Origin: Candidatus Omnitrophota bacterium
Lineage (GTDB): Bacteria; Omnitrophota; Omnitrophia; Omnitrophales; Aquincolibacteriaceae
Assembly (NCBI GenBank): GCA_043821445.1
Contig: JBDRCT010000021.1
Location: forward strand, 1 to 61,730
DNA: 61,730 bases
Direction of reading: 5' to 3'
The notes under the pieces were generated by a model. It had not been told where the DNA came from and made no database searches. It worked only from the letters and a program-made list of their open reading frames with translations. Shown here piece after piece: positions 31,301 to 61,200 of this stretch (position 1 is its first letter; the number at the start of each line of letters is the position of its first letter). Both the position numbers and the translations under genes were made by a program.

Positions 31301-34300
31301 CTATGCGGCTTTGCCGACTGCGGATTGGGCGAGGTATTGCTGCACGACGGCGCCGAGGATAGAAAGTGAGCCATCTGCATTGGCTTGGAACATTCCCCCG
31401 ATCCCGAAAAAGGCTTCGAGTTGTGTCTTGAGCCATGCCGCCGTCACCGGACCGTCTTCTTTTTTACGCTCCGCGATTAGCTCCGCCATATGAAGGAGCG
31501 TCACGGCAAGGAGAAGTTCCAGGTGATCCCGCATCAGTACGTCATCAGGCGTGTTGCCCGCTTTAAAAGCCACGGAAAGAGGACGGAACCCGAAATCGAC
31601 CATGGAAATGGCCGCCTTCTCCGCCGCCGCATCAAACCCCAGGGGAACCTGCGCATTGGAACCCAGGACCGTTAAGGTGCCTTTCACGGACTTCGGATCG
31701 AGCGGGTGTTCTCTATAAAGACCGGCGGACGCCCTGAGTTCCGGGGTATTCAAGAGCGCGGAATCTGCGATCAATTCTACTTTTCTCCGGCCTGCATAAG
31801 TTTTCAAAACTTGCGCAAAGCGGGACAGGAACGGTTGGTTGGTCTTTTCATCCATCATCAGAGCAACTGAAATACCGGCTTCTTTGGAATCCGCCGGCCT
31901 TGCGGCCCATTTCCGGAAAATCTCCTCTTGGTATTCCTTGATGCGGTCATAAAGTTTCCCGGCTTGAACGGATCTTTGAGCCATTTGTTCTTCCGCCGCT
32001 GTTTTCAACACTTGGATCAACGCTGGCAAGTCTTTCCGTGCTAATTCATAGACAGCGAGAACTTCCGACGTATCCAAGACGACACCCTTCCGTGACGGCT
32101 CCAGCACATTCGCAAGTTTTTCGACCACGAGCGGGACAAGCTGCACCTTTTGAGCGCGAACCTCGCTTCTCCCCGGAACTACAGGTTTGAATAATTTGCT
32201 AAGCGTTTCCACGACTTGATTTTTCCTGACCACCGCGATCCCCAATTGATGGGCCAGATCATTCCGGTTATCAATGTCCTCGCGGGTCGCCATGACGATC
32301 GATATCTCCGGTTTGATCGCTTGGACCTTCCGAATCAGTTCGGCGCCGCTCATTTCCGGCATATGGGCATCCGTCACAACCGCATCCACATCCCTTTTCC
32401 CTAATATTTCCAAGGCTGTTTTCCCGTCGGCGACAGATAAGACCTCGGCTCCCGCTCTTTCAAGAGAACTTTGTATATTCGCCCGGTCCGCAGGATCATC
32501 ATCCACATGCAAGATCACCCGGCCTTTCAGCATTTCCGTTGTCCCGCTTCTTGTTTCGGATCGCTTTTCTTGCGGCACCGCGACCGGGAGCACCTGTCGG
32601 AAATGACGAAGAATCCCCTCTTCACCGGCCTGGGAACGCACCCGCCCATCAACCGATCGGACAAACTTGGCGGCATCTTCAGCCTTCAAACTCCAATAGA
32701 TGCTATTTTCTCCGGGTTCTTTATTGAGCCCGTAAGGACGCAAGGCATCATAGAACCGTTCGGCATCAGGATCTTGCTTTCGGGATGCAAAACGAATCGC
32801 CCCGCGGGTCCTTGCGTCGCTTTGGCTCAGCAAGACTGCCAGCTGGATCAGCCGGGTCCCGACATATTTGAGATTCCTTGCCACGCCCGACGTTCTCTGA
32901 TTATCATCCTGGGCGAGGACATTACCGATCTCCAAAAAGACTTCTTCTCCGGATTGTTTTACTGAAAAAATGAAATGTCCTTCCACGGTCCCTTCGCCAT
33001 CTTTCAGAGCAGCTTCCAGGATCGCGATACCGTCATCGACCTGCTTCTTTTCCCTTGAAAATTCATGCGGCAGGCCTTCATAAAAATAGGGGGCTTCTTC
33101 GATGGGAAGGATCCGGGCGCTCACCGGAACCTTTTGCCCATCCGCCGCTTTAAGAACAAAAGTTTCGTAATGAAAACCAGTCGAGATCCTGCTTTCTGGC
33201 TCAGAGCTCTGATACAGCTCCCGGATTGTACTTTGCGTACCGTTCGCCGCATTAATGGCTGCGGCCCGCATTTCGGAACGAATACCCGTTGCCGCCGCGG
33301 ATACCCGACGAAGAATCACGATCTTGGCTTTGTGAGGTTCGTCACTAACCTCATCGAGAACCTCAAACCCCGCATTCTCGTAATCCTCCTTCGTCACGGG
33401 AAAATCAAGCGTATCCAGGACTTCGTGAATACTGATTCCTCCGGAATTCGTTAAAGCGGCCAGATTAGCCAGCATTCGCCGCCCCAATTCCCGATGCCTA
33501 GCTTGTTTTATTCCCGGAACCAAATCTGTCTCATCGTACTCCCTAAACTGTCCGTCGAAAGTCACATCATCCAAAACATCAAGAACCTGACGACTGAAAG
33601 TCACGTCGTATTTTCCTGGAAGACTTCGCGGCAAATCCAGAATCGATCCCAGAAACACACTCAACCCTTCCCTCTTTCCGAAAGACACCATCTTCGGAGC
33701 AATCTCCAATCCGTCACAACTCATTCCCAATTCTCGCAACGCCATAAGAAAATATCCCTCACGGCTCCCGATCTCCAGCATGCGCTTGGATGACAATGGG
33801 CCCGCATATTTTTTCAACATGCTAAGCAGGGTAGCATATGCCACAGCATTCCCCAGCTCGGCATCGCTTTCTTCAGTTGCGAAATTCAATGTTTCCTTCA
33901 GCTTTTCTTCAATTTGCATAAGCCGTTTAGCGATCTCGTATTGATTTAAAGAAAGCCGGTCGATCTCCGCCAAACCTCGCATTTCGGAACGTTGCTCTTC
34001 CTCAGAGGTTATCTGCCCCATTTCACGATCAAGACTAAAACTCCCGGAAATATCGAGAACATCTGTTCCTGCGTTCACTATTTTGATCGTGGTGCCTTCC
34101 CCCTTGATCCAAAAATCGATCTGTTCCAGGCCCCGGGAGTACGGCCGGGCATGAATGTCCTTGAATTCGTCTTCCTGCGACGGTTCTCCGACATAAACCG
34201 TTTTTCCGCTAACGAGGGTCCTCCCTATTTGCCGGCCGGCCGGGTTAAATTCAAGAACAACATATTTTTGGTCGATGCCGCGCTCAATGCGGAATTGCAT

Positions 34301-37300
34301 CCCGTCCTTACCCCGCACCGAAATATGGATAACGTTTCCGGCTCCGGGACGCAGGTAAAAGGTTTCTTCATTGATTCCGTGATTCGAATCAGGAATTTCT
34401 ACCTTCCTGGAGGAAACTCTCGCCTCTGACCGTACCCCAGGTACAGCCGGAGCTAGGGATTGGCCGCCAAGGTTCTGCAGAATAACGTTAACCTCTCCAT
34501 AGCCCGTCTGACGAAGTGCTTCTGTCAATTCTGCATCACCCTCCAAAGCATCCCGGACATTGAATCCAAATTCCTGAAGGACTTTTACCAATTCTTTTTT
34601 GCGGGGATGATAACGAAAATCCGCATCGGGCCAGTAATGGTCGTCCACGATCCAAAACCCGTTTTCCTTGACCCGGACCTGATCGATAAAATGATCATAA
34701 AAATGCCCCAGGCTTTGTCCGCCATTCTGAAAATAGGCATCGAATTCTCTTCCCATGATCTTTGTCAGCTGTGGGTTCCCGGTCGACTGAAACATGCCCG
34801 GCTCCGTCAAATTTCCGGATCTGACGAAATAAAAGCGTACGTTCCTGTTTTTTCCCGCAGGAAAAGGTTTCTCGAATTCGATGAACAGGATCCCGTTCTC
34901 GTTCGTTCCCCAAGACATCCGGTCAACACCCATGGACCTCAGCGCAGCCCATAACGACAAGGGCAAGCTGACTCCGTAAAGTTCATCTTCCCGGGTAAAA
35001 CCTCGAGTGGCTTTCGTGCGAACAAGGTCGGCCGATTGCTCCGCCAGGTCCGCCACAGAATGAATGGCCGTCTCTTTGGAAAAATCCCCTTTGAACCACC
35101 GGTCGACCCGTTCGACGTCTTCTTTCATAACTCCCTTACTGTCGACCATGACCACCTCGTCCGCGCCCGTGGTCACAAGAACATTCGGCAAATCAATGCC
35201 GGCACCAAAATAAAGGACGCTGTACGGATCACCCTCTGTAATGCCAGACTTTATAAGATTAACTTTTTCACGGATCCGCGAGGCGCGGGAAAATCGTTCG
35301 AACGACATAGACGGCTGAACTTGTTCTTCCGCCACCCCTATCCCTTTTTTAGCTCCCGGAAAAACTTGCTCATACTTCGCTTCTTTTTTTTGCGCCTCGA
35401 CACTCAATTGGAAAGTGTCATCCTCCACGGAGGCGTCATATCCTTTTTCCATCCATACTTTTTTAATGGAAAATCCGGCTTTTTCCGCGACTTTTGCAAG
35501 GAATGTCTTTTTGAAAAGTTCCGCCAGGGACGTCAAACCATCGTTCTGTTCCATAGTTTCCTGATACCGGTACAGCAAAGGAAGGATATCCACGAACAGA
35601 TCTTCTTCATCATCAAGATCCATTCCTTCCGGTAATCCGTCCAGTAAAGACTCGAACTCCTCCAAAAGCGTGTCTGCCTGTGGCAGTTTTTTCAATTGCT
35701 CCACAGCCATACGGGACATTTCAACCAAGGCTGTGGAATTGGTCAGAGGTAAGAACCAGAGAGAAGTCCCCGGATCGAGGCTCTTCAGAAAACCGGTGCG
35801 GATCCCCTGTCCACGATCTACATGGTCCTCGATATGCATATCCGTCAAGATAAGCCTGTGTCCCTGCCATCCTTCCCCAAACGGCGTTCCGGGGAACGGC
35901 GCAAGGGCCATCCATCCTACCGAGCGAGTTCCATTTTTATAAATTTCAAAAAAATGCACAGTTATATCTGCTCCTGGGAAAAGCCCATAGCGTTGGGGAA
36001 TAAGACTGCCCGTAAAAACAAAATTGTAGAGAGCTTGATTATTCCCCGTCACTTGGATCGCTTCGATCTTTTTTATGAGCGCTTCATCCCGCATTTCGGA
36101 GCGGGCTGCATCAAGTCCAGCCTCGGGATACATTTGATGAAGTCCGAAATCGGCTACAATGGCCCGAAGATCTTCCCCGGCTTTGACATCCCCTTCGTAC
36201 CTGACTAACCTCTCTAGAAGCACTGCCGCCTCTTCAAACACCGGATCAATCCTTCGCAGATCCTCAATGACCTGTACCAGGGGAGACGACTCGTGAAAAA
36301 CCTCCTCCGGGTAAGCCAACTGAGCCCAGAATTCATCCGCAAACTTAACCTGATCCTCCCGGCCTATCTTGACACGTTCAATATCCTCGGCAACCTGATC
36401 GTCATACGAAGATTTATTTTTGAGAAAAAATTCCCGCAACACCTTCGGCCCGTTCGCCGATCTGAGGAACGCAACATAGCCTTTTTTCAACGTCTCCCTA
36501 TCCGCCGGATTGGCTTTAACGCGCAGTGCCCAATGAGCCCTCTCATGGCGGAGCACCCACTCCAATTCCGGCTGGCGCACTGTATCATCGGAAACCTGAA
36601 CAGCGGTTGTCCCAATAAATCTGCTTAGCAGATCATCGGGTGTGGACGGCTCCCTTCGCTGGGTCCACCGTGCCAACCCATTCTTGAGTCGTTCGGCCTC
36701 TTTATGCGGTAGTTTTTCCAATAACAATTTTCCTAGCCTATAAAATAAAATTGACAAGCCTTGCGCTCCGGTTTCCAGATTGCTCGCTCCTGCATCTTTT
36801 GCGTGCCAGAATGCCGCTACATTCCCACCATTCCGCCCCGTTCGAAACAGGTGAACAATGTTTCGTTCTCTGCTATTATCCGCCTTGATCGGATCGCCAA
36901 AATTTAACACCGTTTCCCGAAGATCCCGATCAGCGGCGATCCTTTGGAGAAGGGTCATATAGACAAAGAATAAACGGTCAACGACCATCAGGTCTGGTGC
37001 CATCATCTTCCACGCCCCCGGCAGCACGACACGGACAGGTAACGAAATACGATTAGCGCTTCGCAGCTGCCCGCCTGCATCCCGCATTTCAGAACGACCA
37101 GCGAACGGCAGAGAACCTCCCCGCAATGCGGGCTGGTCAAAGGGAATGGCAATCGGAACGCTTTCATTTTGTGATCCGTCACCGAAAAGGTCACTGGGAA
37201 AATTGAATGGGCGAAACTGCACGCCTTCCTCAAGTAAAGTCTGCTGTTGCGTCTGGAATATCCTGTGTTCGATCTGCGGTGTACTCCCTTGAACCAAAAG

Positions 37301-40300
37301 AGTGGCCGCTTCGAGCGGAAGCATCGCTGTCCGGACAGCATTGATCTTTCTATCGATCGTGGCCAACCGGGGGCCAAAAACCCGGGCCGAATCATCCGAC
37401 ATGAAACGTACCCAATCAGCCAGATTCGTACTCTTATTATCGGTGAATTGTCGTAAGATCAATTCCCGCGGGACCATGGCACCGTTGACTTTCTGCAGAA
37501 TCATGAGCTTCAAAACAGGAAATTCCTTTGTCCTTCCGGTAGGGTACCTGACCCCCAGGATATAAAGGCCTCCTTCATCTAGTTTCTCGGTAGACTGCCT
37601 GACAATATCCGCGACTTCATCGGGCCTGTAAAACTGCATGACATTGAATAAAATGATGACCTTAACCCTCAGGGGCCTTCCCCCTTTGTCCGCAAAATCA
37701 AAACCAAGAAGACGCTGGTCCGCTTTCTTCAGTACGATCTTGTCGGAAGGATGAAGTGTGATCGCAACACCGCTCGGTTCCTTCGGGTCGACAGCGTAAA
37801 TATACGGCGCCGGAAATGCCTCGTGAAGGTCCAGAGCACCGTAACCGGTGCTCGTCCCAAGATCCACGATGGCGGTTTGCTCCGTCAGTTCACTCGCCGG
37901 AAGATAAAGATTGCCCTCTCCCTTGATCCATTGGATAATTGGCGCATACCGGCCGGGCAAATTTAATGTCTCGATTTCCGCAATCTTGTCTTGTAATTCT
38001 CTTTCGCTTAAGGACCCCACGACAGGTTTTTCCTCCCGTGATTCGGACCGTTGACCTGCAGAAGATGTGAAAACGGAATAGGAATTCTTGAACCTTGGCT
38101 GATCGATCCTTGCCGAAGGAAAACCAAACGCCGCCAGCACGCCTCCCTCCGGCTTTGGAGACGTTCCTTCCCATGGTTTATCGATCGTCCGTGCGACCCA
38201 CCACCCCTTGCGCGCAAAAAAACGTTCGGGAATATAGTCCACCATAAAGCTTAGAGAATCTCCCCATCGAGGGCGGGTCCCGTCATCCTGTTGCCCATCA
38301 AGGATCACTTCCAAACCCTTCTCAAAACTTCTCACCGTCATGATGACCGATGTATTGCCTTTGTCCCGCATCGATTCCAAAGTTCTCTCAACCCCCCGGA
38401 CGAGCTGCTCGACATCCGAAAGCACATTGCTTAAAGGATCGATCCACGTCACCAAACCACTGCGTTCGCTTTCACGGTAAATGAGGTCGATGATCCGGTC
38501 CATATCCCTGACCGAAACCCTGTAACTTTGTTCGCCCAGGCGCTTGCCGTAGATCTCAGGAGAAACAAAACTGAAAGAAGATCCTGTTGCCGATCGCTTT
38601 AACGGCGGAGAGAATGAAGGAATGTCTGTCAAAACGAGGTCATAGATAGACCGGGGAGCGTCTTTGAACATCCGGTACGTTTCTTTATGAGGAGCGATGC
38701 CGCCATCGCGGACCAATGCCCTCAATCTCGACTGCTCGACCGGGGAATCCAAGAGAACATCGACGATATGGTCTTCATATCCCGTCAAAAAATTCGGCGT
38801 ATAAACCCCCGAAATGATCACCAGCCGCTTGCCTTGCGTGAGAAGCGCATCCAGATCATCCTTAAAAAAATCCAACTTGAACGGTGTCTCATGGGACCAA
38901 CTGCCCAAATAATCGTCTGTTTCCATAAAAGCAATGTCTTCCGGACCGTATTCCCCCACCCCCTGACTTTGAAGAAGTTTGGCGATCTCGGTCTTGCCGT
39001 TACCCGAAGCACCCACAAGGATCAGGATCTGGTAATCCTGTCCGTTCCTTCTCTCCGCCAATTTTTCGCCGATAGGTTCCATGACCTTTGCCCGGAATTC
39101 GGGATCCACCGCATCGGACGAACGAATCTCAGAACGCAACCGGGCCATCGCTTCCTTGACCAGAGCCGCCCGGTCCATGCCGACCTCCTGGTCCTCCACC
39201 AATCTCTTAAATGTTCCATAACCATACTGGTGGACCGAAGGGGTGAAAAACACGACGTGTTCATAAGGCGCTTCGATTGCCAAAAGGTCATGGATCGTTC
39301 CCGGCTGAACGAACGCGGCATCGCCCGGCCGGAGATACAGTATCTCGGGGCGATAATGACCCGTTGGATCTTTGATAAAATACACGAGCGCAGCCGCGCC
39401 TCGGGTGACCACATAGGTCTCGACCAGCTCCCAGTTCCCGTTCAAAATAGGATGTTCATGCAGATTTTCGGCGGTCCTGAGATCATGAAAAGAAAATACC
39501 CCTGAATGTTCGGGATATTCGACGCGGGAAACCCCAACAATAGGGGGGAACCGACTCCGGGGAAAACGCTGGGTGGTTGAATCCGTGATCCAGCCCATCT
39601 CACCTTCGACGCCGTTCTTGAGGTCGTACCAATTTTTCCTGTCCCGGTGCCGGTAGACCACCACACCGCCTTTTTCCCAAGCTTTTCCGGTAACATTTTT
39701 CCCGGAATCTTCTTCCCGCCACTCATACCAGGCCGGAGATTTGTCCAGCGTGATCACCACGATATCTCCCCGGGTGACCGCCACGGAAGCCGTTGTGTGA
39801 TGGCTCATTCCAATCACGCCGGGTTCGGAAAGCTTAAAAGACTCGCCTTCTGTCGTCACGATCGCCTCAGCGCCCGCCGGAACGACCACCTGGGTTTCGT
39901 GTTCAAAAACATTTGTTCTTTTTAAAAATTCTTTCGCTGTCGCCCCTTGATACATAACCGTCCGGGTCTTGCTCGCCTCGCCCACAAAATCGTCCACATG
40001 ATAACCGCCATCCGCATGAGGCGTAAGCAGCTCCTTCCCCGTTGACGTCAGCCGCACCACCCCCGGGCCGGGTTGTGAGACGGTGACGTCCCGCACTTCC
40101 GCCCGATTTGGAGAATCAGGACGGATCCGTCCTTCGCTTTGCGAAGGCGGATCGGAACGGCGATTTTCTGTCTCCTGCAGATTTGTAGCAGGTGGAAATG
40201 CTTTCTTTAAAAATTCTTCGGTCAATGCCATAAATTCAGACTCGCCGATACCCGCGGACCCTGTCCTGTCTGCCTCTGCAAACGCGCGCTCCGCATCGGC

Positions 40301-43300
40301 CACGAGCCCTGGATCCCGCAACAGAAGCCGCAAATACGCTTCGCCGAAATAGGGGCGCCGCACCGCATAGCTCAAAGAACCCGAAACGGGAACCGGCAAG
40401 TTCGCGATTTTATGGACCATGGCTTGAAAAAAACGATTGGGGTAGTCACGCCAATCGGCAAACAACTGCCGGGCACCTTCTTCGCCGTCAAAAGACTTCA
40501 CACTATCAACGCTCGTGTCGATCATCTGCATTAACGGCCCATAATTGTCCGTTATATTGGAGCTACGAGTGCGGTTTCTTTTCGTAACCCACAGGGCACG
40601 AAGATTCGAAGCCATATTCTCCATGAGATAACGCAACACAATATCATCAAGACCTTCCCGGCTTTCTTTCTGGAAAAGCTCCTGGTAGGAGGCCTCCATC
40701 AGATCATGATCCGCCCAGACCGGAAGAGGCCCGTAGGACTCGCTGACTAACCCGGCCAAACGGTTCGTGTCGAAAGACATCCGAACGGAGTACCAAGTCT
40801 GTTGCCACTTCGTTGCTATAAGTTCAGGGAGTGTGAGAGCATTAAAAAGTCTGGAAGAGTAAACCGTATCCGCCAAGAGTTGGGCCCCTTCCCGCCGAAG
40901 CATCGCGTCCATACCTTTTGCAAAAGACGCTTCCCTGCCCGTTGCGCCGACCCCACCGCCCACACGGGAGGCAGTACCGGTGACCTTTTTATAATCTGCG
41001 CCCGGGATGTACACCATTTTCCTATCGAGTCCGGCCAGAGCATCCGGAGTCACTACGCTTGTAAGAAACGACGCCGCTCCGACACCCTTAAACTCAATCG
41101 TCGCGGCCACTTTGAGGCGAACTTTGCCTTGTCCGGCCAGACGTTTGAGGATCATTCCCGCATTATTTCGTGTCACTTTTTCACCAGCAAGTTCACTGAT
41201 CTCATCGAATGTCGAGAGAATTCGGATGCCGATTCCTTCTTCCACATAGGGCACGACCCAAGGACCCGGCAGGGCAAAAACACGGTTTCCCGTAACCAGC
41301 ATTTTGACCCGTACAGGTTCTCCCGAAGCATTGAATACTTTTTTTAACCCGGCAAATTTCAGTTCTTGTTCCGATAAAACGCTCCCATTGGGATGGTAGA
41401 TCCCATCTCCCGCGATCGGGATGTAGCGCTCGTCGAACCATAAGAGATTTGATTCGTGAGCATCTATCTTTTCGTATAATTCAGCCTCTATGACGCGGAT
41501 CGGCATCATTTCAAAAGGATGCTGCTGCGCCAGGGGATGCTTCCATAGATAGGAAGAGACCATGTGACCGTTCAGAGGATTGATCCCAAGACCGTTTATG
41601 GGATTTTTTTCTAAAATATTCAAACGGCGATTAAAATCCGGCAAACTATCTGGGGTAAACCTCAAAAATCCCTCATCCAATAATCTCAAACCCTCGGGAG
41701 TGTGATCCTCCCGGATCTCGGAGCGAGGTCGTGTCAATAAGGCACCGGCTTTGACATCCATGGCAAAGGTCGCGTCCGGATGTCCTTGCAAGAAGGACGC
41801 GGACACTTCGGAACTCGCCGGCTCCTGTGTGGCTTTTTTGACTGCATCCGCTTTATTTTCTCCAAAAGCCAGGACCGCGATCTTCGCCGCCCTCCGGAAA
41901 GTTTCCGGGCCGATCGTGAGCGCCTGCAAAGGCATTTCCTTGATGCGCGAAAAATCACGCATGTTATCAATGATCGTCGGGACGGCCAGCTCAACGCGCC
42001 GCGTTCGCATGGCCGAAGGTTTTTCCTGTGACAGGACGACCTGGACCGGTCTTCCCAAGGACCGTTCCACCTGCGCTTTGATCTCAGCGAGCTGTTCTTT
42101 CCTTTCATTCGTGATCTCATCCACATAAAAGATCACCTTCTGCCCAAGCAATCCCCGGATCAGTCCGTCCAAGTCCCCGAGATCCTCCGGACCCCACGAA
42201 TCCTTTTTCATCGAAGCCTTCAGAGTCCCCTGAAGTTCCTCGCGAAATTCATTGCTTGTGCGAATGTGGAAATGGTTCGCCAAAGCCATGGTGACGGCTT
42301 GATCAAAATCGACGTCTTGCTCAAGAAGGAATTCGTTGAAATCGGCGAATTTCTTCTCCCATTCGCGCACTTGATCTCCGGACAATTTTTTTCGTATAAG
42401 ATCATTGCCGATAATAATGATCGGTTCATTAAAAGCGATGTGCCCGTCGCGGCCGATACCGCCGAAGCCAAGATCGATACGTCCCGGAAAAGAATTTTCA
42501 TAGCGCCGGCATTCTGCTTCAAAATCTTCCGCATTCCCGTTCAGGAAATGAATGTTCGCGTCCTTAAAGCCAAATTTACGGAGATGCTTGAACAACTTGT
42601 CTTCCATGAACGCACGAAAACTATGGATGTCTTCGGCCCAAACAGGCCCCTTCGCCGTCGGGACAAATCTTTTCATCAAGGATCCGACCACGGTGCTGAC
42701 CGCGGAAGACAAAAAGCCCGCCTGCTTAACCGCTATTGCCGGCACTAGCTTTTTCATCGCCGCACCGGGATAATATTCATCCATGTTGAATGTGTGAAGG
42801 CGGGAAAGATCGATCCGCTCGCTTGCGACGATCCTGATGAACGCATCGTACAATTCGATGGGCGTGCTCCCTGTCGGCAGAATGTATGTCGTATCCCTAT
42901 CGTACCGATTATTGTCCAGAATCGTGTCGGCCATAAGACGGGCGTACTGCTCCACGGCCCGCCGTGTATCACCGTACTCTTCGATGAACAAACCCTGTGA
43001 CGTTTTAAATGCCGCCACCCGGGCCTCGGAGCGGCGTTGGCTTGAGGATCTCCCCGGCACAATGTGGGATTTCACTGTACGCCCTCGGATCTTTTCCGCC
43101 ATGGCTCTTGCCAGCACAGCACCGATTTCTTGCTGGAGTGCAACTCCGTGAAGGTCCCCCCATTTCAAGACCCGCACCAGTTCCTGGGAAGTCTGTTGGG
43201 AACTCTCCAGGTTCGGGAAGAAGGAGACCATCCCTTCAAGAACGCCTCTTGTCTCCGGCGACAGGCCTGAAAGAAGATCACTGCCCAGGATAAGATTAAA

Positions 43301-48470: not shown

Positions 48471-48507
48471 AAAAACAAAAAAGCCATCGCCGTTTCCAAC
48501 GATGGCT
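48471..48507 (-). terminator. Rho-independent terminator downstream of giant ORF2
   Basis: Minus-sense AGCCATCG-TTGGAAACGG-CGATGGCT followed by TTTTTTGTTTTT. Lies 31 nt after the ORF2 stop codon. Confidence 0.7.
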
Positions 48508-48537
48508 TTTTTGTCTTGAGCGTTGCCGAGCGGTACG

Positions 48538-51500: not shown

Positions 51501-54500
51501 ACCGGGTCTTTGCTTGAGGGTCCACATCTGCCACTGGTTCCAGTTTTTGGGCCGCCGCCTCCAAACGCGCGATCTTGCGTTCCAGGCTGATGATCTTCGG
51601 ATTTTTTTCCCTTGCTTCCGAGCGACGTTCTCTTGCTTGACGATTGCCATCAAGGATCTGTTGCGCCTCACCGGCCTTTCGATCGAGCCACGCCTGAGCA
51701 TGTTTCAGAATAGATTTCGAACGCGCCAGTGTTTCCGCCTTATCTTGTCCATTTCTCCAGCCCAAATAGAATCCAGGCAAAGCACCGTTAGAGACATCGG
51801 TTTTGTGATAAACCCATGCACGAACGTCCGCGTTTGCAAACTGCTTCTGGAGATAGGATTCCAAATCCAACCACAAGAGATAGCTCTGGCCAAAACTTCT
51901 CCAATTTCCATCAAAAAGGTCTGAAAGACGTTTTAGCCGGATCATTTGAAACCCCTCGACCGGCTGGTTTTGCCTCCATCTGGAATCTTTCACGTTTTTC
52001 ACTTGCAAATCTTCTTTCAAGGCGTGAATCACGGCCAAGACAGAACGCGGCCTGACCTGCTCGCCTCCGTAAATCGACATTGTCTCAGCTCTCACCTCGG
52101 AACGCTTTTCCACTTGAAGCGTTATCGATTCGAAAGGCTTACCTTCAGTAAGCGTGACCTGCAGGTCCGTACCGGACACATTGTGAGGAACATTCTTGGT
52201 CAACCAGGTTCTCGGAAGCTCGGTGACCTTTTCTCCGGAAAATCTCACTTCAAATCCATTATCCTTACTAAAAGAACCCGTTGCCTCGATGGTCAGGCCC
52301 TGGACCGTCGTCCGGACGTTGCGGAAGACTCCCTTTCTCGCCGGCATGTCAAGCTTCACGACACGGACTCTCCCCGTCAGCCTGTCTAAAACCCATAAAA
52401 CTCCTCTTCCCAAAAGAAACTTCTCCAAAATGGTACGCAGGATGTTTCCCAGCCCGGGACGGGAAAGACCGAAGTACTTCCTCACGGACGGAGGAAGATC
52501 CTTATCGGCAACGATGTAGCCCACAAAATGGGATTGGTCCTGGGAGGCTAAATTGATTTTAAGATTGACGGGTTGCACTTGCTCTTCGTGAGCTGCCGGC
52601 TGCCTTTCCTGGCGGACATAGATCTTCCCGTTATCAAAATCAATGTGCGTGACCCCGGAAAACGGATACGACCTGTTTACCCTTGCGGAATATATTTCGA
52701 GATCCCCCGGGATACCTTGGTGCATCCGGAAGACAATGGAGGGGAGGGATCTTATCCCCAGTTGATCGAGTCGCTGCCCGATCGCTTTGCTGCTCATGAA
52801 TTTCGTTGCCACTGATGCCGCAATCGTTCCTTCCGTGAAAAGGCTGCTACGGACCTCGGAACGGGCGACCATGGCCGTATTGGCAGCATTCGCCATCGAA
52901 ACGGCCTCTTGAAGCAACGTGTGGGGCGGCGCAACGATGATCTCTACTTGACTTTGACGGACAAATTCCTCGCCCGCTAATCCCGTGATGAATGGATCGA
53001 GGTTGTCCCTTTTTGCCGACGGCTCCGCCTTCCAATTGGCCGCGAGGACGAGTGTCCTTCCGTTCCCTTTGTCCCCTGTTGCGCTTATGATCCGGCCCAT
53101 CTTGGAAAAACTTTCCAATTTCAGGCTCGCGCCCCCGACCAGGAATCCGTCGATATCGGGCTGGATCGAAAGACCGCCAACATTGTCCGGCTTCGCCGAA
53201 CCGCCGTAGAGGATCCTCATATGCGCCGCGAGTTCCGGAGAGTAGGTCCTTGCAAGCCAATTCCGGATCGCTTGATGCACCTCCTGAGCCTCTGCCGGCG
53301 TAGCATTCAAACCGGTGTTGATGGCCCAGATCGGCTCATAAGCGATCATGCTCACCGCCTTTGCGACATCTTCTTGGCTCATGCCATGGAGCGCCTCTCC
53401 GAGCTGACGAAGAACAAACAAAATGTGATTTCCGGCGTCTCTTACGCTCCGGGGTTCGCCCACGCAAAGCAATTGCACCGGAGCTGCACCCTTGGCTGCC
53501 CATTGCAACTTTTCATTGATGACTTCGTCGGTATCCCCGAATTGTTCGTACGTCCTCAGAAGTTGCCCGAATGCGGGCGAACTTTTGTCGGTACCGTACA
53601 CTTCCACCATCCGGTGCCGTCGCTCGCTGTGACCGGTCAGTGATGCTGTGACACCGACCTCTTGAAGATGCTCATAATTGACCGAACCTGTCGCTGCGCC
53701 CGTTTTAAGTGAAAAATGCTGGGCAAATATCTTGATCGGCCTCGCTTCCGCCCGCGCTTCCGAGCGGGCGGGTTGGATCGCTGTAGCGAGGGCTTGCGGC
53801 ATAGCCGGAAGCGGGGCCACATGGCCGAGCGCATACTGCTGAAAATAACGGCGACTGTCCTTTGCACCCAAAAGGCCGTACACCTTGACCTGCCAGTCAT
53901 TCAAACGCTCGATCACTTCCTTTTCCGTGGCCTCCGGCATCCTTGTCAGATAAGGAAGCAACGGCGCGCAAAGGTACTTCACGAGATCTTTCAACTTGCT
54001 GCGGGCCTCTCCGGGGACATCATTACTGTCCGAAACCATCATCAGAAGAACCCTGCGACGATCTTCGGTTTTGTTGACATCAAGACCGCGTTCGGCATTT
54101 ACTACTTGAATAAAACGATCCCACTTCGGAGGCAGCATTGCGCCGGTCTTCTTATCTTTCTCCGGCTGTCCGAACTTTACAGTATTGCTTTGGATCCCTA
54201 CCGCATACGCTAAAAGATCTTTCGGCTCGATCTTCAATGCCGCAGCATAATCCTTCAATACCGGGGTCAGGCTCTCCTCGACCGGCTTCATGAACAGCAC
54301 CAAGAGATCCCACATCACATCCGCCATGGCCGGGTCTTTCTGCGCCACGGCCTCAAGAACGATGTTCTGGAGCTGTGTCGCAAGGTGCACTTCCCCCACC
54401 CGGTGTTTCTGCAGGATCGGAAATTGATCGTCCGTCAGTTTCGAGGCGCCGTGCTGCACACCCTGGACTTTCAGAAGTTTCTCGTGGATGCGGAAGACGA

Positions 54501-57500
54501 TCGTGTTCACGCGCCGGCCCGCCACCCCATGGGCCGTCCCAGTCTGATAACTGATCTTGTCCAAACCCGCGATATCCACCCCGTACTTCGCCTTAAATGC
54601 AGCATTCCGGACCGCAAGCCCTTCCTTAACGCCCGCAATGAACGCAAGCGTCCCTTCCACTTCACTCGGCTTATCGGCCAACACCTCATCATCAATATGA
54701 CGTTCCTCACCGCCGATCAAGGTGACCGTCCCGCGTGCCATCAGTCCCTTGCTCTTGAGCTCTTCATCATGCGCGCGGATCTTCACGATCTGATCCACCG
54801 TCGCGGCGATCGTATGCTTATGGATTTCGCGGTACCGTTCGATGCGGCCCTGGTCCACCCAGTTCCAAAGTTCCGGCTCCGGCATGTCATCGATCCAATG
54901 ACCGATCGATTCAAGCGTTTCCCCGGCTTCCAAACGCTTCCGGACCTCATTCATGAGCTTGGACAGACCTGTCGGGTTGTCCGGCGTGACGGATTCCGCG
55001 TACAGTTTGGACAATAAAATAGTATCCACGGCCGTGGATGGATCAAGATCGATATGATAACCGCGGGCCGTGATCATATCGCGGATCTCAGCCTCGAATT
55101 TATCAAACGCTTTCTTGCGCTTGGCAAGGTCCACGTACGGTTCGCGTTCATCCAAGGTCATCGCTTTAAACTTCTTCGCGAACGTTTCCGGATCTTCGCC
55201 GGCAGGGATCTTCGTCTTATCCAAGCCGAAAATGTCATCCAGCTTCAGCTGACGGTGGTCCGCCTGGGCGATGATCGGAACTTTCGAGCCCACGAACGCG
55301 TGCGCAATTTGCGCGGCCGCAAGGAACATCTCATTCGTTTTAAGGCCGGAATAACCTTTTTCACTCGCGGCGAGTTCCGCGATCCCGCCGGCGTTCAGCC
55401 GGTCCAGCGACTCAAAGAAAGAGATCAGTTGGATGATGCCGCCCGCGCGCATGTTGGTGGCGGGGATCACCCACACCTTATCTAGATTTGCTTTCTCACG
55501 ATAAAGCGAAGCCGCGGACATCATTTCGACACCCCGGGCATTGGTGATGGCGCTCGCGATCCAATAAGCGGCATGATTGACATCCGCATTGGGATTGTCT
55601 GTCAGTTCACGCGTTAGATCAAAAAGACGGCGATTCCCTTTCAACCCCTGCAAGATCTCAACGCCGTTTTCGTTCACACGAACAATATCCGAAAAATTCT
55701 GCAGCAGCTCACTCACCGACCCCGACAACGCCGGCATTTCCTGCATCTTCACCATCCGCACTTCGGAGCGGGCAATGGCTTCCTTCACGCTGACGAGCGA
55801 AGCGACCGGAATACCGCCTTCCTCCAAGAATTGAGGGGCGATCCCCTGCATGCTTCCAAGATAGACCTTTCTTTGAGAGACCATCGCGATGATCCCCGTA
55901 ACGGTCTGGGTCTCCGGTTGTCCAAACGGCCTCCATTCCAATACCACGGGGACCGCAGAGTTTCTGTAGGCCTCAAGGGAGGTTTCATGGAACGAATCCC
56001 TCAGAAGCGCATAATAGTCCGTCCAAAAAACAAGATTGGTCGTGATGTTGGTCTGGGCCCCGAAGAGCTGCTCGTGTCCCCGCAAAGCCAGCACGGTCCC
56101 GGTAGCGTTATCGATCGTAGAAAACACAGAGACGCTCTTTCCTGCCGGCAATACGACACCGTTCGCAGACACACGGATCCCGTGGGATTCCAACTCACTT
56201 TGGTGCGCCTTGAGATATTCCTGATCGATCAGTCCTGCCAGGTATTTTTGGATCGCGGTCACCTGCTCTGCGGCGGTCCTTGCTTCCGAACGGTGAAAAG
56301 ACACTTGAACGCCGGTCCCATTGGGCTGCATTTGGGCTGTCGCCGAGATCCTGATCGGCCGGAGGATCCCATTCGTCCCGTTGTTCCGGCGAAGGACCAT
56401 CTGAAAGGCACTGAGTTGTTCGGACTGTAACCCCAAATGGAAGAATACGCGATCCTCATGGTTGCGTCTCTTCAAAAGAAAACCCACAAGCTGCCAAGGT
56501 TTGTCCGGAAATTTGGCCACGACGGCGGACGGAACCTCAAGATCCTGGGGCAGCTGATGTTCGTGGATCGTTTCAGAGAGAACTTCCTTCAGAGCAAATC
56601 TCTGGACCGCATCGGGGATCGAAACGACACCCCACTCCAAATGTGACGCCGAGACGCGCACCGTGGGACGTCCCGGGAACTGTTGCAACGAGCTTTCTTG
56701 GTCACCCGTTTGTTCTTTTTTCTCGTTCAAACGCTCGAGCTCCTCCATGGCAAGGTCCAGGTTCAGACTAACATTCCGAATTTCTGAACGGTATGCGGCA
56801 AATTCGATCGATCCTGTCCACGTAAAGGATTCTTGAGTCGTCGTTCCACGATCAGCACCGAAAGCTGGATATTTTCGGGCAGAAGCTGGGGTCCGTGTGG
56901 TCATTTGCCAATCGATCGCAACCTCTTCCCCCTGAGAAACGAACTGGATACCCGGATCCTCACCTTGTTCGAGCGCCATTTCAATAAAAGTGAGTTTGTC
57001 TTCGGGAACCGAACGCCAATCGACACGGATGGAGGGCCCTTTGCTGAGATAAGTGCCCCCTTGGCTTCCTACGGTCGTCGGTAGAACCCCGACGTTTTCC
57101 TGGGCATACTGTATGAGCAATTCATTGATCCTTTTCACCGCCTGAGGGAAACGGCCAAGTTTTTGGTGGGTCTGCCATGCTCTGAAAGCCACAAAACCCG
57201 TAACCGAAAGAGCGATTCCGCCTGCGACTGCCGGTAACCACGACCGCGTCTCTGAACGACCTGCCTTGGCATTCCTGACCTTCTGGGAAGGATGAGGACG
57301 TTTTGTGTTGGGTCCGTGAAGCGCCGTAATTTTTTTATGATCTTTGGTCCTTTGCACATTTTTCGTTGCCGCTTTTGCCCTCTCTCTCGCAACTTGCTCC
57401 TTCTGATTCGCTTGTTGGCGCTGGCTATCCGTATTACGAATTTCCGAACGGACAATTCCTTGTCGAGCGTTGCTAAAAACTACATTAAATCGAAAATCAT

Positions 57501-60500
57501 GTGCCGCTCGTAAACCGACTAAATAGGCTTCTATCCCCGACGCACCTTGTCCTTCAAAGGAAAGAACCATGGGGGGATATCCCGGCTTCATCACTTCCCA
57601 CCGAAACGTTCTTAACGTCTTTAAACCGATGCTGGGAAATATTTTCCGGTCCAAAACTTGCGGTTGTGCGTCATGAGCCTGTTGGAAGGTTTCGACTATA
57701 GTTTGATCTTCCCGCACCGTTAACTTTACCATTTTAATTTGATTTGCTTCAACCCCAGGCAACGGTACCGGCAATCCATATCTACGCTGCTCAAGGATTA
57801 ACTCTTGGCCGGAATTGGAAATCTTTATCCGTTCGCGAATGCCATCATCAAAACCCACATTGGGACCAAAAACGAGTTGCTTTTCCGAATTTTCAACTTG
57901 GAATAGGGCCCTCAAAAAACCAACGAGTTTTTCCGCCCCATCTTGCTGGCTAAAGTCAAACGTGATAGCGCCGCCGCGCATCTCCGAGCGTTTCCGAGCA
58001 TCGGACGAAGACAACAACCCAATTTGCGCATCTAAGATACCCTCCACAACCGCGTCCGGGGCCATCGCCCCCATAGTAAACATCCCTTTTGCTCCGCGAA
58101 GCGCCGCCGCTTGAACCGTGCGAACAGTAGAATGAAATTTCGCTATCTCCGCGCGAAGGGCTTTCATAGCCTCCGGATTAGCAATTGCGGTTTCATTGAC
58201 GCGGTCAAGAACAGCCTGAAGTGCCCCTAATTGCTTTCGGCCCTCTTCTTCGGTTATGGTCGGATCGCTTATGAGGAGCCCACCCACTCTTATCTTCCAC
58301 GGTTCGGTTATTGCTTGACGTGCTTCCGAACGGCCAGCGACCTGCAAAGAACTGAGAATGTCAATTGCTTGCTGAAGATCAGGAGGAAGGTGATCTGTTC
58401 TGACCTTTGTTGCAAGAAATGCACTGACGCTTCGAATTGTAGGAATAGCTTTATCGAATTCTGCCAGCCGGATTTGTTCTATGGCATACGAGAGCGATCG
58501 ACTGTAAGAGCTTGAAACGGAATCCACATCCCAGATCAAATCGCGCACTCTGTCTACTAATTCTATAGCCTTGTCTATTTTTGCCCCCGCACTTTTTCCC
58601 AGCCTTTCGAAACGGCGAAGTACCGCTTCACCCAATTGATTCATTTCTGCCGCTGAATTTCCAGAATAGAACTCTCGAAAAAAAGCCTGCAAGGCCTCTA
58701 AGGCTTCAGGACGTGACATAACCCCTTTTTCCAGATCGATCAGAACCTTTTCGGGTTGCACCGTTCGCGCCTCTGAACGACTGGCCTTCGCATTCCTGTC
58801 CTTCTGTGACGGCTGATGGGCTTTGGTGTTGGGTCCGTGAAGTGCCGGAATGATCGCATGATCCCTGGTTTTTGGCACATTCTTCGTTATCGCCTCCGCC
58901 CTCCTGATCCGGGCCTGTTCTCGCTCAAACGTTTTTTTACGCTGACTATCCGTATCACGAACTTCCGAACGGCCGTTTCGGGTTCCGCTGTTTGCATTAT
59001 CGAGCCGGCTATCAATCGGAGCAATTGAAGACCGATTCCCGTCAATAATATGCCCAGATCTGTCCCGTTGCGGAGTCACTTTGTTCCCTCTTCTGTCAAC
59101 AAGTTCTCCGTTTCTCCCCACGCTAACAGTTGTTCGATATCCCCTATCATTCGTAATCTCAAAACTCCGTGCCTCCGAACGGCCCGCCTTGGCATTCCTT
59201 ACCTTCTGTGACGAATGAGACTGTTTTGTGTTGGGTCCATGAGTCGCCGGGATGATCGTATGATCTTTGGGCCTTAGTACATTTCTCGTCGCCGCCATTG
59301 CGCTTTCGCGTCTGCGCTGTTGTTCCAAGGCGGCTTCGCGATCGACTGGGCCTCTAGTGGGAGCAGAAGGGACTACATTAAGTTTCTTAAGAGCGGAACC
59401 AGAGAACGCCAAAGAAAGAGCATCACGAATCATGGCCGGTTGTGTCAAAATTAAACCGGTAATAACATCACCAACTTTGGCCAGAAAATTGCGAACTTCC
59501 GACCGCGAAAAAACGGTTTCCATCGCGGTGGGATCCGAACCAAGGACGGCGCTCATCTGCGAAGTTTCGAATTCACGGGCACCAAGAATGGAACGCAAAT
59601 AAACTTCATGGTCGCGCTTGGTGACTTCGGTGATGCGCGGCGTGATCTGAAGATAAGAACAGTTTTTGGCGGCAGCGAGTTTTTTCAGACCATCGGTGTG
59701 GAACCCTCCGGTAACGATCACGGCGCGGTTTTCTTTTAGTTCACCCATTTTTTGGAGAGCGTTGGTAAACATGTGCTTTTCACGGACAACTGCAGTGGAG
59801 TAGAAATTCATGGCCTGCTTAAAAACACCTTGGATTTTCGGCTCAACGCTCAAAGCGCAAAGCGCAACGTCCTTTTTTGGATTTTCTCGTTGTGCGTTGA
59901 CCGTTGTACGTTGCGCGAGGTTCAATTCTTCATACTCACCTCTTGTTAACTCTAACTGGAAAAGTTTTCTAAGAAGACGCAGTTGACGGGCCTGGGCGAG
60001 ATATGCTTTTTCATCCGGAATTTGGGCCAAGGTGTCCTGGATGCGCTCTTGTAACCGCAAGGTCTCTGTATGGAGCCCTTTGCCTTCCAGTTCCTGCATC
60101 AGGATGATGTGTTGGGCATAAAGCGTCCAGCTCGGCCATGATTTCATGGAAAAGTCTTTGGGGAGTTTTTCGAACGCAAGATCGAAAGCGCGGCGCAACG
60201 GGGAGTACTCGCCTGCGGCACGGGACTCGGGACTCGGGACTCGGGACTCGCGCAGAAGCACTTTAAAACTACTGACGACGTCTGCTGAGATCCCCCGTTT
60301 TTCTAGTACCTTGATGAAAGCTTCCGCTTCCTGGTGCGCCTTTTCATGATCGATCTTGGAACCGATCGCCTGCAAGCGTTCATAACGGACAAGAAAAGGA
60401 TATTCGTTCTGATGGAAAGCATCGGCAAGGTCCAGCTTCAGGTGTTCTTTGCTCGCTTGGGCGAGGACTTTGAGCCATCCTTCAAAAGAAAGCGTCCCTG

Positions 60501-61200
60501 AATCCAGTGCCGTTTCCTGACGGACAAGTGCTAAGAGGTTCTTATTGAGTTTCGTTGTGAATCGACGTTCAAGGACGCTGCGGAGTTCGCGTAAAGAAGC
60601 CTGCGCGGCTTTATCTGCTTTTACCACCGCAATGAACGCTTCGCGGTCTTTTTTGTAGGAATCTAGGTTCTCGACCCCAAAGGCCTCGAACCCGCTCAAC
60701 GCACTACGCTCAACGTTCAACGATCCTTTCTTTTCCGTTGCGCGTTGTCCGTTGCGCGTTGCGCTATTGTGATTAATCAGAAAATTCTCCGGGCCGGTGA
60801 GATATCCTTCCTGCATGAGCTTATCCGTGACCTTGCGGTTGAAGTCCGGATGATCGGGAAACATACGAAAGAGTTCAGGCTGGAGTTTGTTCGCTGCACC
60901 TTCAAGGAGCATGAGACGAACCTTGGAATTTTGCTCGATGTAACCGAGGAGTTTTTCGATGTTTTTCTCGGCCTCATAATTGCCGTGCGCGGACTGGATA
61001 TGGATGAGGGCCGGAGCTGTGGGGTCGCCCACGATCGTGTCCGTCACCTGCCCGAATTCAGCGGGGATCTCGAGCGTCTTAAACGGGACAAGAGACACTT
61101 CGGCCTTTGGCATGCTTGCGTAACCCATGGGGTTGAGGTTCGTCACCACAAAAATGAAGACAATAAAACCCGACACCATTTTCAATAAACGAACATTCAT
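48538..61200 (-). CDS. Giant modular ORF 2 (4,220 aa): signal peptide + conserved N-module + ~17 cargo modules (aldolase-like, TPI, PGI) + conserved C-module
   Basis: Uninterrupted 12,663-nt ORF. ATG at 61200 with an AGGGGGA Shine-Dalgarno 7 nt upstream (61208-61214). Sec-type N-terminus ([19 protein letters not shown]..GYA-S). Contains 18 RSExR junction motifs. Confidence 0.85.
   Translation of the reverse strand: [4220 protein letters not shown]
48541..49350 (-). other. ORF2 C-terminal module (aa 3951-4220), related to the ORF1 C-terminal module
   Basis: See feature 31304-32155. Follows the last RSEVR junction. Confidence 0.5.
49366..51195 (-). other. ORF2 module aa 3336-3945: full-length glucose-6-phosphate isomerase (PGI)
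   Basis: Collinear with canonical PGI: [91 protein letters not shown]. Confidence 0.9.
52864..53751 (-). other. ORF2 module aa 2484-2779: triosephosphate isomerase, circularly permuted (beta3-beta8 first, beta1-beta2 last)
   Basis: Order found: [50 protein letters not shown], then [10 protein letters not shown] (nt 53029-53037 = NWK) and [10 protein letters not shown]. Confidence 0.8.
53767..55755 (-). other. ORF2 module aa 1816-2478: class II (metal-dependent) fructose/tagatose-bisphosphate aldolase-like domain with a long C-terminal extension
   Basis: Family-ordered motifs: [20 protein letters not shown] (DH), [45 protein letters not shown]. The three His positions used as Zn ligands in class II aldolases appear retained. 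Confidence 0.55.
57259..57435 (-). repeat. ORF2 intragenic basic repeat module, copy 3 (aa 1256-1314)
   Basis: [59 protein letters not shown], bounded by RSEIR and RSETR. DNA-level similarity to copies 1 and 2 is visible. Confidence 0.8.
58780..58956 (-). repeat. ORF2 intragenic basic repeat module, copy 2 (aa 749-807)
   Basis: [59 protein letters not shown], bounded by RSEVR and RSEAR. Confidence 0.8.
59182..59340 (-). repeat. ORF2 intragenic basic repeat module, copy 1 (aa ~621-673)
   Basis: ...[37 protein letters not shown] followed by RSEAR. Confidence 0.75.
59842..59915. repeat. Heptamer-periodic palindromic element, copy B (in frame inside giant ORF2)
   Basis: CTCAACG CTCAAAG CGCAAAG CGCAACG - loop TCCTTTTTTGGATTTTCT - CGTTGTG CGTTGAC CGTTGTA CGTTGCG. 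Encodes [27 protein letters not shown], which is absent from the ORF1 paralogue. Confidence 0.8.
60221..60248. repeat. Perfect heptanucleotide tandem repeat (CGGGACT)x4 inside giant ORF2
   Basis: Direct reading gives cgggact cgggact cgggact cgggact. Lies in the coding region for aa ~318-327 (RVPSPESR). Confidence 0.9.
60695..60763. repeat. Heptamer-periodic palindromic element, copy C (in frame inside giant ORF2)
   Basis: CTCAACG CACTACG CTCAACG TTCAACG - loop ATCCTTTCTTTTC - CGTTGCG CGTTGTC CGTTGCG CGTTGCG. Encodes [26 protein letters not shown]. Confidence 0.8.

Follow-up and report, generated by a model that had tools for sequence, protein, structure and literature searches.

The contig JBDRCT010000021.1 of a Candidatus Omnitrophota bacterium (assembly GCA_043821445.1; 61,730 nucleotides analysed at full length, hereafter the window) carries two tandem giant open reading frames (ORFs), A and B, which we interpret from sequence analysis, with a probability of roughly 60%, as precursors of polyproteins that are cut at a recurring pentapeptide mark, RSExR. 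In this interpretation, each ORF would specify a Sec-type signal peptide, a head of ~550–670 amino acids (aa), a series of complete, unrelated proteins that are each preceded by the mark, and a tail ending in -[S/A]-A. Four observations carry the interpretation: (i) the statistics of the mark, (ii) selection that acts on the mark at the level of the peptide, (iii) the match of marks to protein N-termini and to the starts of homology blocks, and (iv) the architecture of the protein family to which A and B belong.

The RSExR mark

Both ORFs lie on the minus strand and are open without interruption over 12.7 and 16.9 kb, and their coordinates confirm the two uninterrupted same-strand ORFs of 5,636 and 4,220 aa that an initial annotation of this DNA had described.

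48538..61200, minus strand: giant ORF A, 4,220 aa, upstream of B; signal peptide and head, 17 cargo modules, tail A
31301..48211, minus strand: giant ORF B, 5,636 aa; signal peptide and head, 15 cargo modules, tail B

A contains 18 copies of RSExR, and B contains 15 together with one RAEVR. The narrower set RSE[VIML]R, on which the chance expectation was computed, is found 10 times in A and 9 times in B, and composition-preserving shuffles give 0.02–0.04 copies per protein (~0.06 for A and B together). Each RSE tripeptide of A and B continues as xR, and RSExR is absent from the other real ORFs of the window. The codons of the mark vary synonymously at all five positions (CGN/AGA; TCN/AGC; GAA/GAG). 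Therefore, the peptide rather than DNA or RNA is under selection, and a role of RSExR at the nucleic acid level is ruled out. The junctions are as follows.

59491..59505, minus strand: RSEVR, A aa 566, first copy in A
59167..59181, minus strand: RSEAR, A aa 674
58957..58971, minus strand: RSEVR, A aa 744
58765..58779, minus strand: RSEAR, A aa 808
58318..58332, minus strand: RSEAR, A aa 957
57976..57990, minus strand: RSEMR, A aa 1071
57436..57450, minus strand: RSEIR, A aa 1251
57244..57258, minus strand: RSETR, A aa 1315; membrane-anchor-like segment (aa 1321-1339) directly after
56776..56790, minus strand: RSEIR, A aa 1471
56278..56292, minus strand: RSEAR, A aa 1637
55756..55770, minus strand: RSEVR, A aa 1811
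53752..53766, minus strand: RSEAR, A aa 2479, N-terminus of a permuted triosephosphate isomerase (TIM)
52849..52863, minus strand: RSEVR, A aa 2780
52090..52104, minus strand: RSEVR, A aa 3033
51610..51624, minus strand: RSEAR, A aa 3193
51421..51435, minus strand: RSEAR, A aa 3256
51196..51210, minus strand: RSEVR, A aa 3331, 2-3 residues ahead of the natural N-terminus of glucose-6-phosphate isomerase (PGI)
49351..49365, minus strand: RSEVR, A aa 3946, start of tail A
46178..46192, minus strand: RSEVR, B aa 674
44975..44989, minus strand: RSEMR, B aa 1075
44954..44968, minus strand: RSEAR, B aa 1082, 7 residues ahead of a signal of the twin-arginine (Tat) type
43925..43939, minus strand: RSEAR, B aa 1425
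43019..43033, minus strand: RSEAR, B aa 1727
41711..41725, minus strand: RSEIR, B aa 2163
40091..40105, minus strand: variant RAEVR, B aa 2703
39122..39136, minus strand: RSEIR, B aa 3026
38036..38050, minus strand: RSESR, B aa 3388
37082..37096, minus strand: RSEMR, B aa 3706
36089..36103, minus strand: RSEMR, B aa 4037
34418..34432, minus strand: RSEAR, B aa 4594
33977..33991, minus strand: RSEMR, B aa 4741
33266..33280, minus strand: RSEMR, B aa 4978
32549..32563, minus strand: RSETR, B aa 5217
32156..32170, minus strand: RSEVR, B aa 5348, start of tail B

The initial annotation had placed the first junction motif at aa 674–678 of both proteins; a copy stands there in both, and the first copy of A lies upstream, at aa 566–570. 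Two marks of B stand seven residues apart (RSEMRKT-RSEAR, aa 1075-1086, window 44954-44989, minus strand), directly before the Tat-like signal; such tandem marks would release a heptapeptide or give redundancy.

The mark extends through the family of proteins that share the head. An unbiased 5-mer scan of 146 representatives (450 kaa) ranks RSEMR, RSEVR, RSELR, RSEAR, RSETR, RSEIR and RSESR just behind the peptides of the head itself, and RSExR is found at 650 sites, an 89-fold enrichment outside the head. RAExR (130 sites) and RTExR (34 sites) are also enriched, with Ser and Glu nearly invariant. One head cluster lacks RSExR and is punctuated by [AG][AS]SLG(xE) instead (proteins P0067, P0078, P0086, P0090 and P0114; loci L025 and L039). 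This SLG mark is confined to that cluster, yet divergent heads within a single genome use the same mark, so that the type of mark cannot separate a cis-acting from a trans-acting protease.

A mark this strict, selected at the peptide level and with its Ser and Glu so constant, could in principle separate the products without a protease, as a 2A-like skip, a programmed pause or a self-cleaving R|S bond (N-to-O acyl shift), and the lack of a conserved protease gene beside 80 loci that carry the head would fit such a mechanism. To our knowledge, five residues without conserved upstream context are too short for any ribosome-skipping or autoproteolytic fold. The enriched RAExR and RTExR sites rule out Ser as an essential nucleophile, and the sister clade uses the unrelated SLG mark. 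We regard separation without a protease as highly improbable.

Marks and protein N-termini

Searches of Pfam, NCBIfam and PDB identify in A a class-II aldolase-like region, a TIM and a full PGI (E = 1e-171), and in B a NagB-like deaminase, a methyltransferase and a receiver domain, in keeping with the enzymes, methyltransferase-like fold and receiver that had been noticed among the cargo; the remaining modules of A and B are without a match in these searches.

53767..55770, minus strand: class-II fructose-bisphosphate aldolase-like module, A aa 1811-2478; matching region aa 2180-2322
52864..53766, minus strand: circularly permuted TIM module, A aa 2479-2779
49366..51210, minus strand: complete PGI module with a 30-aa P/T/Q linker, A aa 3331-3945
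44831..44938, minus strand: internal Tat-signal-like segment, B aa 1092-1127; SSRRYFLGL, hydrophobic core, VLA/Q
41726..43033, minus strand: NagB (glucosamine-6-phosphate deaminase)-like module with insertions, B aa 1727-2162
33281..33991, minus strand: S-adenosylmethionine-dependent methyltransferase-like module, B aa 4741-4977 (Pfam)
32171..32563, minus strand: single receiver domain of CheY size, B aa 5217-5347; 131 aa, junction at each side

The PGI of A is ~50% identical to stand-alone PGIs and aligns with them end to end. The first residue of 117 stand-alone PGIs falls on position 8 of the module, 2–3 residues past RSEVR, and their C-terminus falls 30 residues before the next mark, the gap being filled by the P/T/Q linker. 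The TIM extends from the RSEAR of aa 2479 almost to the following RSEVR, and within these limits its order is permuted, from TIM residue ~57 (the His region of GHSERR) over residues 103–250 to its own N-terminal strand (…LAANWK…). The NCBIfam model for PGK/TIM fusions matches the TIM part of A.

For the family as a whole, we used the boundaries of high-scoring segment pairs to define homology blocks; Pfam scans of six further members leave these almost entirely unannotated. Of the starts of blocks that family members have in common, 39.6% are ≤15 aa away from a mark (8.3% at random), and their distribution peaks sharply at ±5 aa. Internal Tat-like signals behave in the same way, as 8 of 13 sit ≤7 aa after a mark (7% expected), for example RSEAR-DNRLQGSSRRYFLGL…VLAQ in B (aa 1082-1127), and the SLG clade likewise places a Tat signal directly after its own mark (…AASLG-MDRRDFIKLAGA). 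Internal hydrophobic segments start ≤20 aa after a mark in 21% of cases versus 4.9% at random. In 14 of 32 such post-mark segments, the mark provides the sole positive charge ahead of the hydrophobic core, an indication that the downstream product retains at least the last Arg. Lipoboxes behind junctions are not enriched (two clear cases). Tat signals work only at a free N-terminus; therefore, cutting of the chain at the marks is the most economical reading of these data.

The modules may alternatively stay joined. A and B would then be single, membrane-tethered multi-enzyme scaffolds, in which RSExR is a linker, a docking motif or a capture scar, followed by relics of former N-terminal signals. 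Uncleaved multi-enzyme fusions such as AROM and CAD exist elsewhere and serve as precedents, some modules of A and B are multi-domain, no protease turned up beside the 80 loci, and published topology analyses treat the giants of Omnitrophota as single proteins with signal peptide and transmembrane (TM) helices. A linker, however, does not need a strict five-residue sequence that is kept across heads only 22–26% identical, and the codon variability of the mark speaks against a scar of recombination at the DNA level. Relic Tat signals should decay, but they are intact (Arg pair, hydrophobic core, AxA) in several independent proteins of two clades with different marks. The need of Tat signals for a free N-terminus and the tolerance of gene fission exactly at the mark (see below) also count against joined modules, a reading that we judge unlikely.

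Mark-bounded modules of A and B range from 7 to 673 aa. This revises the initial annotation, which had given 58–663 aa and had called the modules mutually unrelated: a very basic 64-aa peptide (…HGPNTK…PSQKxRNAKAG), flanked by marks on both sides, occurs three times in A. It also occurs three times in the closest relative of A (locus L006) and nowhere else among the sequences compared.

59182-59340, 58780-58971 and 57259-57450, minus strand: copies of the 64-aa basic peptide in A

No single repeat dominates A or B, self-BLAST returns no internal repeats, and each protein has only 2–3 hydrophobic segments. Domains of nonribosomal peptide or polyketide synthases (condensation, adenylation, carrier, ketosynthase, acyltransferase) are absent from A and B by Pfam and NCBIfam, and RTX or toxin domains are absent by Pfam, in line with the initial annotation, which had set these architectures aside.

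Head, tails and relatives

Both proteins begin with Sec-type signal peptides ending in AxA, as the initial annotation had stated, and continue into heads that are indeed paralogous (blastp of aa 6-523 against aa 13-510, 26% identity, E = 3e-18).

61114..61200, minus strand: A signal peptide, aa 1-29; Sec-type with basic n-region, hydrophobic core and GYA/S site
59506..61200, minus strand: A head, aa 1-565; predicted hydrolase with invariant H72, E100, E177, Y467, R473 and GGFH501
48098..48211, minus strand: B signal peptide, aa 1-38; Sec-type, …SAYA/N
46193..48211, minus strand: B head, aa 1-673; paralogue of the A head

A signal-peptide-like segment stands at the N-terminus of 130 of 143 family members, and H72, E100, E177, Y467, R473 and GGFH501 are each invariant in 116–117 of 117 heads. 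H72 and E100 are 28 residues apart, and an AlphaFold2 model of the head (predicted local distance difference test, pLDDT, 75) places beta strands at H72, E100 and GGFH501. The recurrent best, weak Pfam match is PF04187 (ChaN, Tiki superfamily), obtained for 8 of 12 and 8 of 16 members (best E = 3e-4), and the top weak Foldseek matches of the model include structures of Ere-like proteins, ChaN and HopBA1 (3b55, 2rad, 6xcq, 2g5g, 5t09; E at least 0.2). We tentatively regard the head as a predicted hydrolase that faintly resembles the Tiki/ChaN/erythromycin-esterase superfamily. With Tiki, TraB-PrgY, GumN, ChaN and erythromycin esterases it may share an alpha/beta core and a His…Glu…GxxH-like 'GGFH' pattern, and it differs from them by a helical insertion of ~250 aa; all matches are below threshold and the equivalence of residues is putative. 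Within the Tiki/TraB/ChaN superfamily, Tiki is a metalloprotease.

A search of 1.84 billion cluster representatives with a head profile yields 9,689 members (6,597 at E ≤ 1e-30). Among the best 150 matches listed, nearly all carry the head at or near the N-terminus and most are 1,000–7,700 aa long. Close head homologues occur only in Omnitrophota and are named Omnitrophica or Omnitrophota. With one genome per GTDB species, we obtain 259 confirmed head loci, nearly all in Omnitrophota and often several per genome. In 2.9 million viral contigs (IMG/VR) the head finds a single weak match, and a viral origin of the head-bearing genes was rejected.

Relatives differ in their cargo by whole, mark-bounded modules, as a comparison of module order proposed in the initial annotation shows. 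The closest relative of A (head 74% identical) lacks exactly one mark-to-mark unit and carries other cargo downstream. Two strains that are 99.99% identical differ by a cargo block of 1,429 aa (4.3 kb; L001 16431-20717 versus L002 16431-16469); in the shorter allele (L002), the block is replaced by a 13-aa cassette with RSEMR that is repeated elsewhere in the same protein. Close relatives thus keep head and tail but vary in cargo, which an exchange of modules between identical marks would explain. In a further relative, GCA_040767405.1, the head is encoded by an ORF of its own, which stops three residues past the mark (…RAELRQD*), an arrangement found on 7 contigs from independent assemblies. 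The in-frame cargo ORF behind it encodes a cytidylate kinase, CofD, a nucleotidyltransferase, a guanylate kinase and a tail homologous to tail A. In three relatives, a single in-frame stop just past the mark splits head and cargo ORFs (L001 11948-11950, L017 ~11894-11896 and L043 ~11525-11527), and in L001 this stop is TAG; it could reflect gene fission that is tolerated, or a programmed read-through as in gag-pol. At L004 12118-13212, a DDE transposase of an insertion sequence directly follows the head gene and presumably truncates a former polyprotein; genes for a sigma-54 activator and a histidine kinase immediately precede that head. A second giant ORF (8,710 aa, 0.09% cysteine, ending …QAIATSA) precedes the head of the relative at L001 1-9651, so that such genes stand in tandem in other genomes, too.

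The tails of A and B belong to separate families.

48541..49365, minus strand: tail A, aa 3946-4220 (275 aa); Rossmann-like alpha/beta core, ends -GASA
31304..32170, minus strand: tail B, aa 5348-5636 (289 aa); own family in proteins with B-type heads, ends -GKAA

The exact C-terminus is formed by tail A in 18 other head-bearing proteins and by tail B in 5–8, with proteins of very different lengths among them. A model of tail A (pLDDT 66) gives generic Rossmann-like matches only, all at E > 1e-3. The initial annotation had described loosely similar C-modules of ~270–285 aa. The sizes are close to this, and homology was rejected (blastp E = 0.15; the families from four rounds of jackhmmer never merge); the sensitive profile check that it had named for the tails returns an hhalign probability of 0.3%, and only the extreme C-terminus is shared. 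In 98 of 146 representatives of the family, the chain closes with -SA or -AA, preceded by a conserved amphipathic stretch of ~14 residues (…AAQKAMGASA in A, …LAQSAVGKAA in B). Cysteine accounts for 9 of the 9,856 residues of A and B (0.09%) versus 70 of 5,732 (1.22%) in neighbouring genes (Fisher p = 1e-21), and for 0.078% of residues family-wide. The avoidance of cysteine and the -SA/-AA end resemble exported or tail-recognised proteins.

These features raise the alternative of an exported multi-effector precursor with a logic like that of MARTX, in which a cysteine-free chain is secreted whole by means of its Sec signal, head and -SA/-AA end and is cut only once outside the producer, in the periplasm or in a host or prey cell, where the released enzymes and other proteins would use their Tat and Sec signals. 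Cysteine depletion, the near-universal signal peptide and the equally widespread C-terminal signature agree with export. The Tiki/ChaN/erythromycin-esterase superfamily, which the head matches weakly, is mostly extracytoplasmic. Omnitrophota have been inferred to be symbionts or predators (PMC10066038), a life that would suit such effectors, and the strain-level differences in cargo are as in effector repertoires. PGI, TIM, aldolase, NagB and nucleotide kinases, on the other hand, need cytoplasmic substrates, the 80 loci contain no linked secretion or injection machinery, toxin and RTX domains are lacking, and the use of bacterial effector signals by the Tat or Sec system of a host is speculative. 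We consider export of the whole chain distinctly unlikely.

The gene neighbourhoods of relatives, a further comparison suggested by the initial annotation, show no gene family, be it a protease or a secretion system, that is conserved beside head-bearing genes across the 80 loci. In the window, the rest is ordinary bacterial housekeeping (tyrosyl- and isoleucyl-tRNA synthetases, an ABC transporter, ProC, Lgt/LspA, menaquinone genes, LpxD and others). The CPBP and Zn_peptidase_2 genes of the window were rejected as a dedicated protease, both being ordinary housekeeping genes. The AT-rich spacer of 326 bp is confirmed, and it holds a terminator-like hairpin, in agreement with the terminator initially annotated for the upstream ORF.

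48212..48537, minus strand: spacer between A and B, 326 bp, 37.7% GC
48471..48512, minus strand: terminator-like A-run, GC hairpin and T-run, 25 nt past the A stop codon, from sequence reading and a hairpin scan

Upstream of the start of A (window 61201-61270, minus strand), three direct copies of TTTTAAAAT(T/C)C, spaced ~11–12 nt apart, stand ahead of a strong AAAGGGGGAA ribosome-binding site and may constitute a regulatory repeat. A scan for sigma-54 promoters gives matches at chance level.

An artefact, in the form of chimeric assembly or of pseudogenes that are read through, is hardly credible in view of these data. The window is metagenome-like and an exact-sequence look-up of the A product finds no record elsewhere; against this, the exact B sequence is present in a public library (P0026), and the same architecture recurs in hundreds of independent assemblies from >250 species. 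The long open frames, conserved enzymes, tails at the exact C-terminus and normal neighbours also contradict an artefact.

Proposed processing and its consequences

We infer cleavage, its position in the motif and its enzyme as follows. A site-specific protease would cut the precursor at every RSExR, probably N-terminal of the last Arg, which would leave this Arg on the downstream product. The expected products number ~19 from A and ~17 from B. They would include soluble proteins (PGI, permuted TIM, aldolase-like, NagB-like, methyltransferase and CheY-like receiver) as well as a Tat-targeted protein, membrane-anchored proteins and small basic peptides, each of which would follow its own targeting. 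The head is the prime suspect for the protease, as the sole universal enzyme-like part with invariant His/Glu/His. A mark common to the start of all units would permit harmless insertion, loss and swapping of modules.

Several observations weigh against this model. The cleavable signal peptide of the head predicts an extracytoplasmic location, whereas the Tat signals and the enzymes imply cutting in the cytoplasm. Processing in the cytoplasm does not account for the ~13-fold depletion of cysteine in all modules, a trait typical of exported proteins. No dedicated protease gene was found beside the head-bearing genes at the 80 loci. The link of the head to a protease superfamily is likewise weakened, as PF04187 scores 17.6 bits, below its cut-off of 27.7, Foldseek of the head model returns no match at E < 0.2, and sequence-profile searches of PDB with the full head and with its trimmed alpha/beta core find nothing relevant. 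Some modules hold more than one domain without a mark in between (A aa 1811-2478), RSExR and SLG are both missing from many distant head-bearing proteins, and the signals behind marks could be non-functional remnants of genes that were captured. Distant lineages without either mark may use other punctuation codes. The conflicts over location, cysteine and tail keep three alternatives alive, namely export as an effector precursor, uncleaved scaffolds and separation without a protease.

Viral polyproteins, such as those processed by picornavirus 3C or potyvirus NIa (TEV), are cut at short consensus sites, and A and B resemble them in that a single ORF holds several complete proteins with varied destinations and fixed stoichiometry, with a short, strict peptide at each junction. 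In contrast to them, A and B are chromosomal bacterial genes with housekeeping, envelope or unassigned cargo and without a recognisable 3C-, NIa- or chymotrypsin-like protease, and their cleavage is a prediction. MARTX toxins (3.5–5.3 kaa) have conserved ends, cargo that varies between strains by recombination, and an internal cysteine protease domain (CPD) that cuts after Leu. A and B are similar in size, in conserved N- and C-terminal regions, in strain-variable internal cargo and, as proposed here, in release between modules; unlike MARTX, they lack RTX-type repeats, Peptidase_C80 and linked type I secretion genes (by Pfam and among neighbours), and their cargo is metabolic rather than toxic. 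Uncleaved fusions of the fungal AROM, CAD and PGK-TIM type combine 2–5 related steps and have neither a punctuation motif nor internal targeting signals. Consecutive pathway enzymes share one chain in those fusions, a likeness to A and B, which differ in holding 17–19 mostly unrelated units, some of them Tat-targeted or membrane-anchored.

The 'multi-enzyme metabolic cluster' giants of Omnitrophota, a class defined by Nielsen & Lui (10.64898/2026.06.07.730766), are the nearest relatives in kind: they share with A and B the phylum, unrelated enzyme domains in a single ORF, a signal peptide and scattered hydrophobic segments. Catalogues of such giants start at ≥10 kaa or >30 kaa, and A and B are shorter (4.2 and 5.6 kaa). 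Nielsen & Lui treat the giants as single proteins with signal peptide and TM helices, and their text does not contain the words cleavage, motif or polyprotein. West-Roberts et al. (10.1101/2023.11.21.568195) list TIM, PGI and aldolase domains in Omnitrophota giants and speculate on cleavage by C39 or S8 proteases, noting that missing information on cleavage points hindered their analysis and stands in the way of predicting structure and function; A and B are without a Pfam match to either protease. Their archaeovorins (West-Roberts et al. 2023), with >30,000 aa, dozens of TM helices, a C39/S8 peptidase and SecA-like domains, differ from A and B, which are far shorter, have 2–3 hydrophobic segments each and show no Pfam match to such domains. 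Neither 10.1101/2023.11.21.568195 nor 10.64898/2026.06.07.730766 reports the head family, a junction motif or cleavage points, and the RSExR/SLG marks, the -SA/-AA end and cysteine depletion are likewise absent from these preprints. Literature searches on RSExR, on bacterial polyproteins and on sites of cleavage in Omnitrophota gave no relevant match. Within the literature searched, the polyprotein interpretation therefore appears to be new, as do the punctuation code and the head family together with the C-terminal signature and the depletion of cysteine. The claim of the initial annotation that a head-cargo-tail arrangement with enzyme cargo is undescribed holds for head, motif and cleavage points, but giant multi-enzyme ORFs are already described in the two preprints. 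Its picture of a conserved export or assembly chassis with swappable cargo keeps the conserved ends and the exchange of whole modules; the tails are not homologous, and a concatenation of complete, mark-preceded proteins describes the ORFs better, although head and tail might still serve export.

For the giant genes of Omnitrophota, a recognised puzzle, the punctuation code provides testable cleavage points, allows such ORFs to be split in silico into units of a size suited to structure prediction, and accounts for the shuffling of cargo between strains. Published topology analyses of Omnitrophota giants find that the number of TM helices rises in proportion to protein length, which follows if every unit comes with a signal or anchor of its own. 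An additional handling step is suggested by the C-terminal signature and by the depletion of cysteine. In a wider reading, which is possible but doubtful, virus-style polyproteins would make up a considerable share of what Omnitrophota express, enzymes of central metabolism and envelope proteins with Tat or Sec targeting among them, with the head as a cis-acting processing hydrolase, RSExR or equivalents of single lineages such as SLG as the cleavage code, and cysteine avoidance and the -SA/-AA end as traces of an undescribed handling pathway. In this pathway, the unfolded precursor might be threaded or exported, perhaps even delivered into a host cell, and then processed in a tail-dependent way.

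We know of no other large family of chromosomal polyproteins in bacteria, and if cleavage holds true, this family would be the first. The head-bearing ORFs would then offer a new pair of protease and recognition site of biotechnological interest. One translation unit with fixed stoichiometry would replace operons in ultra-small, host-dependent cells, and in the wider reading the 'giant genes' of Omnitrophota would be operon substitutes, not giant proteins.

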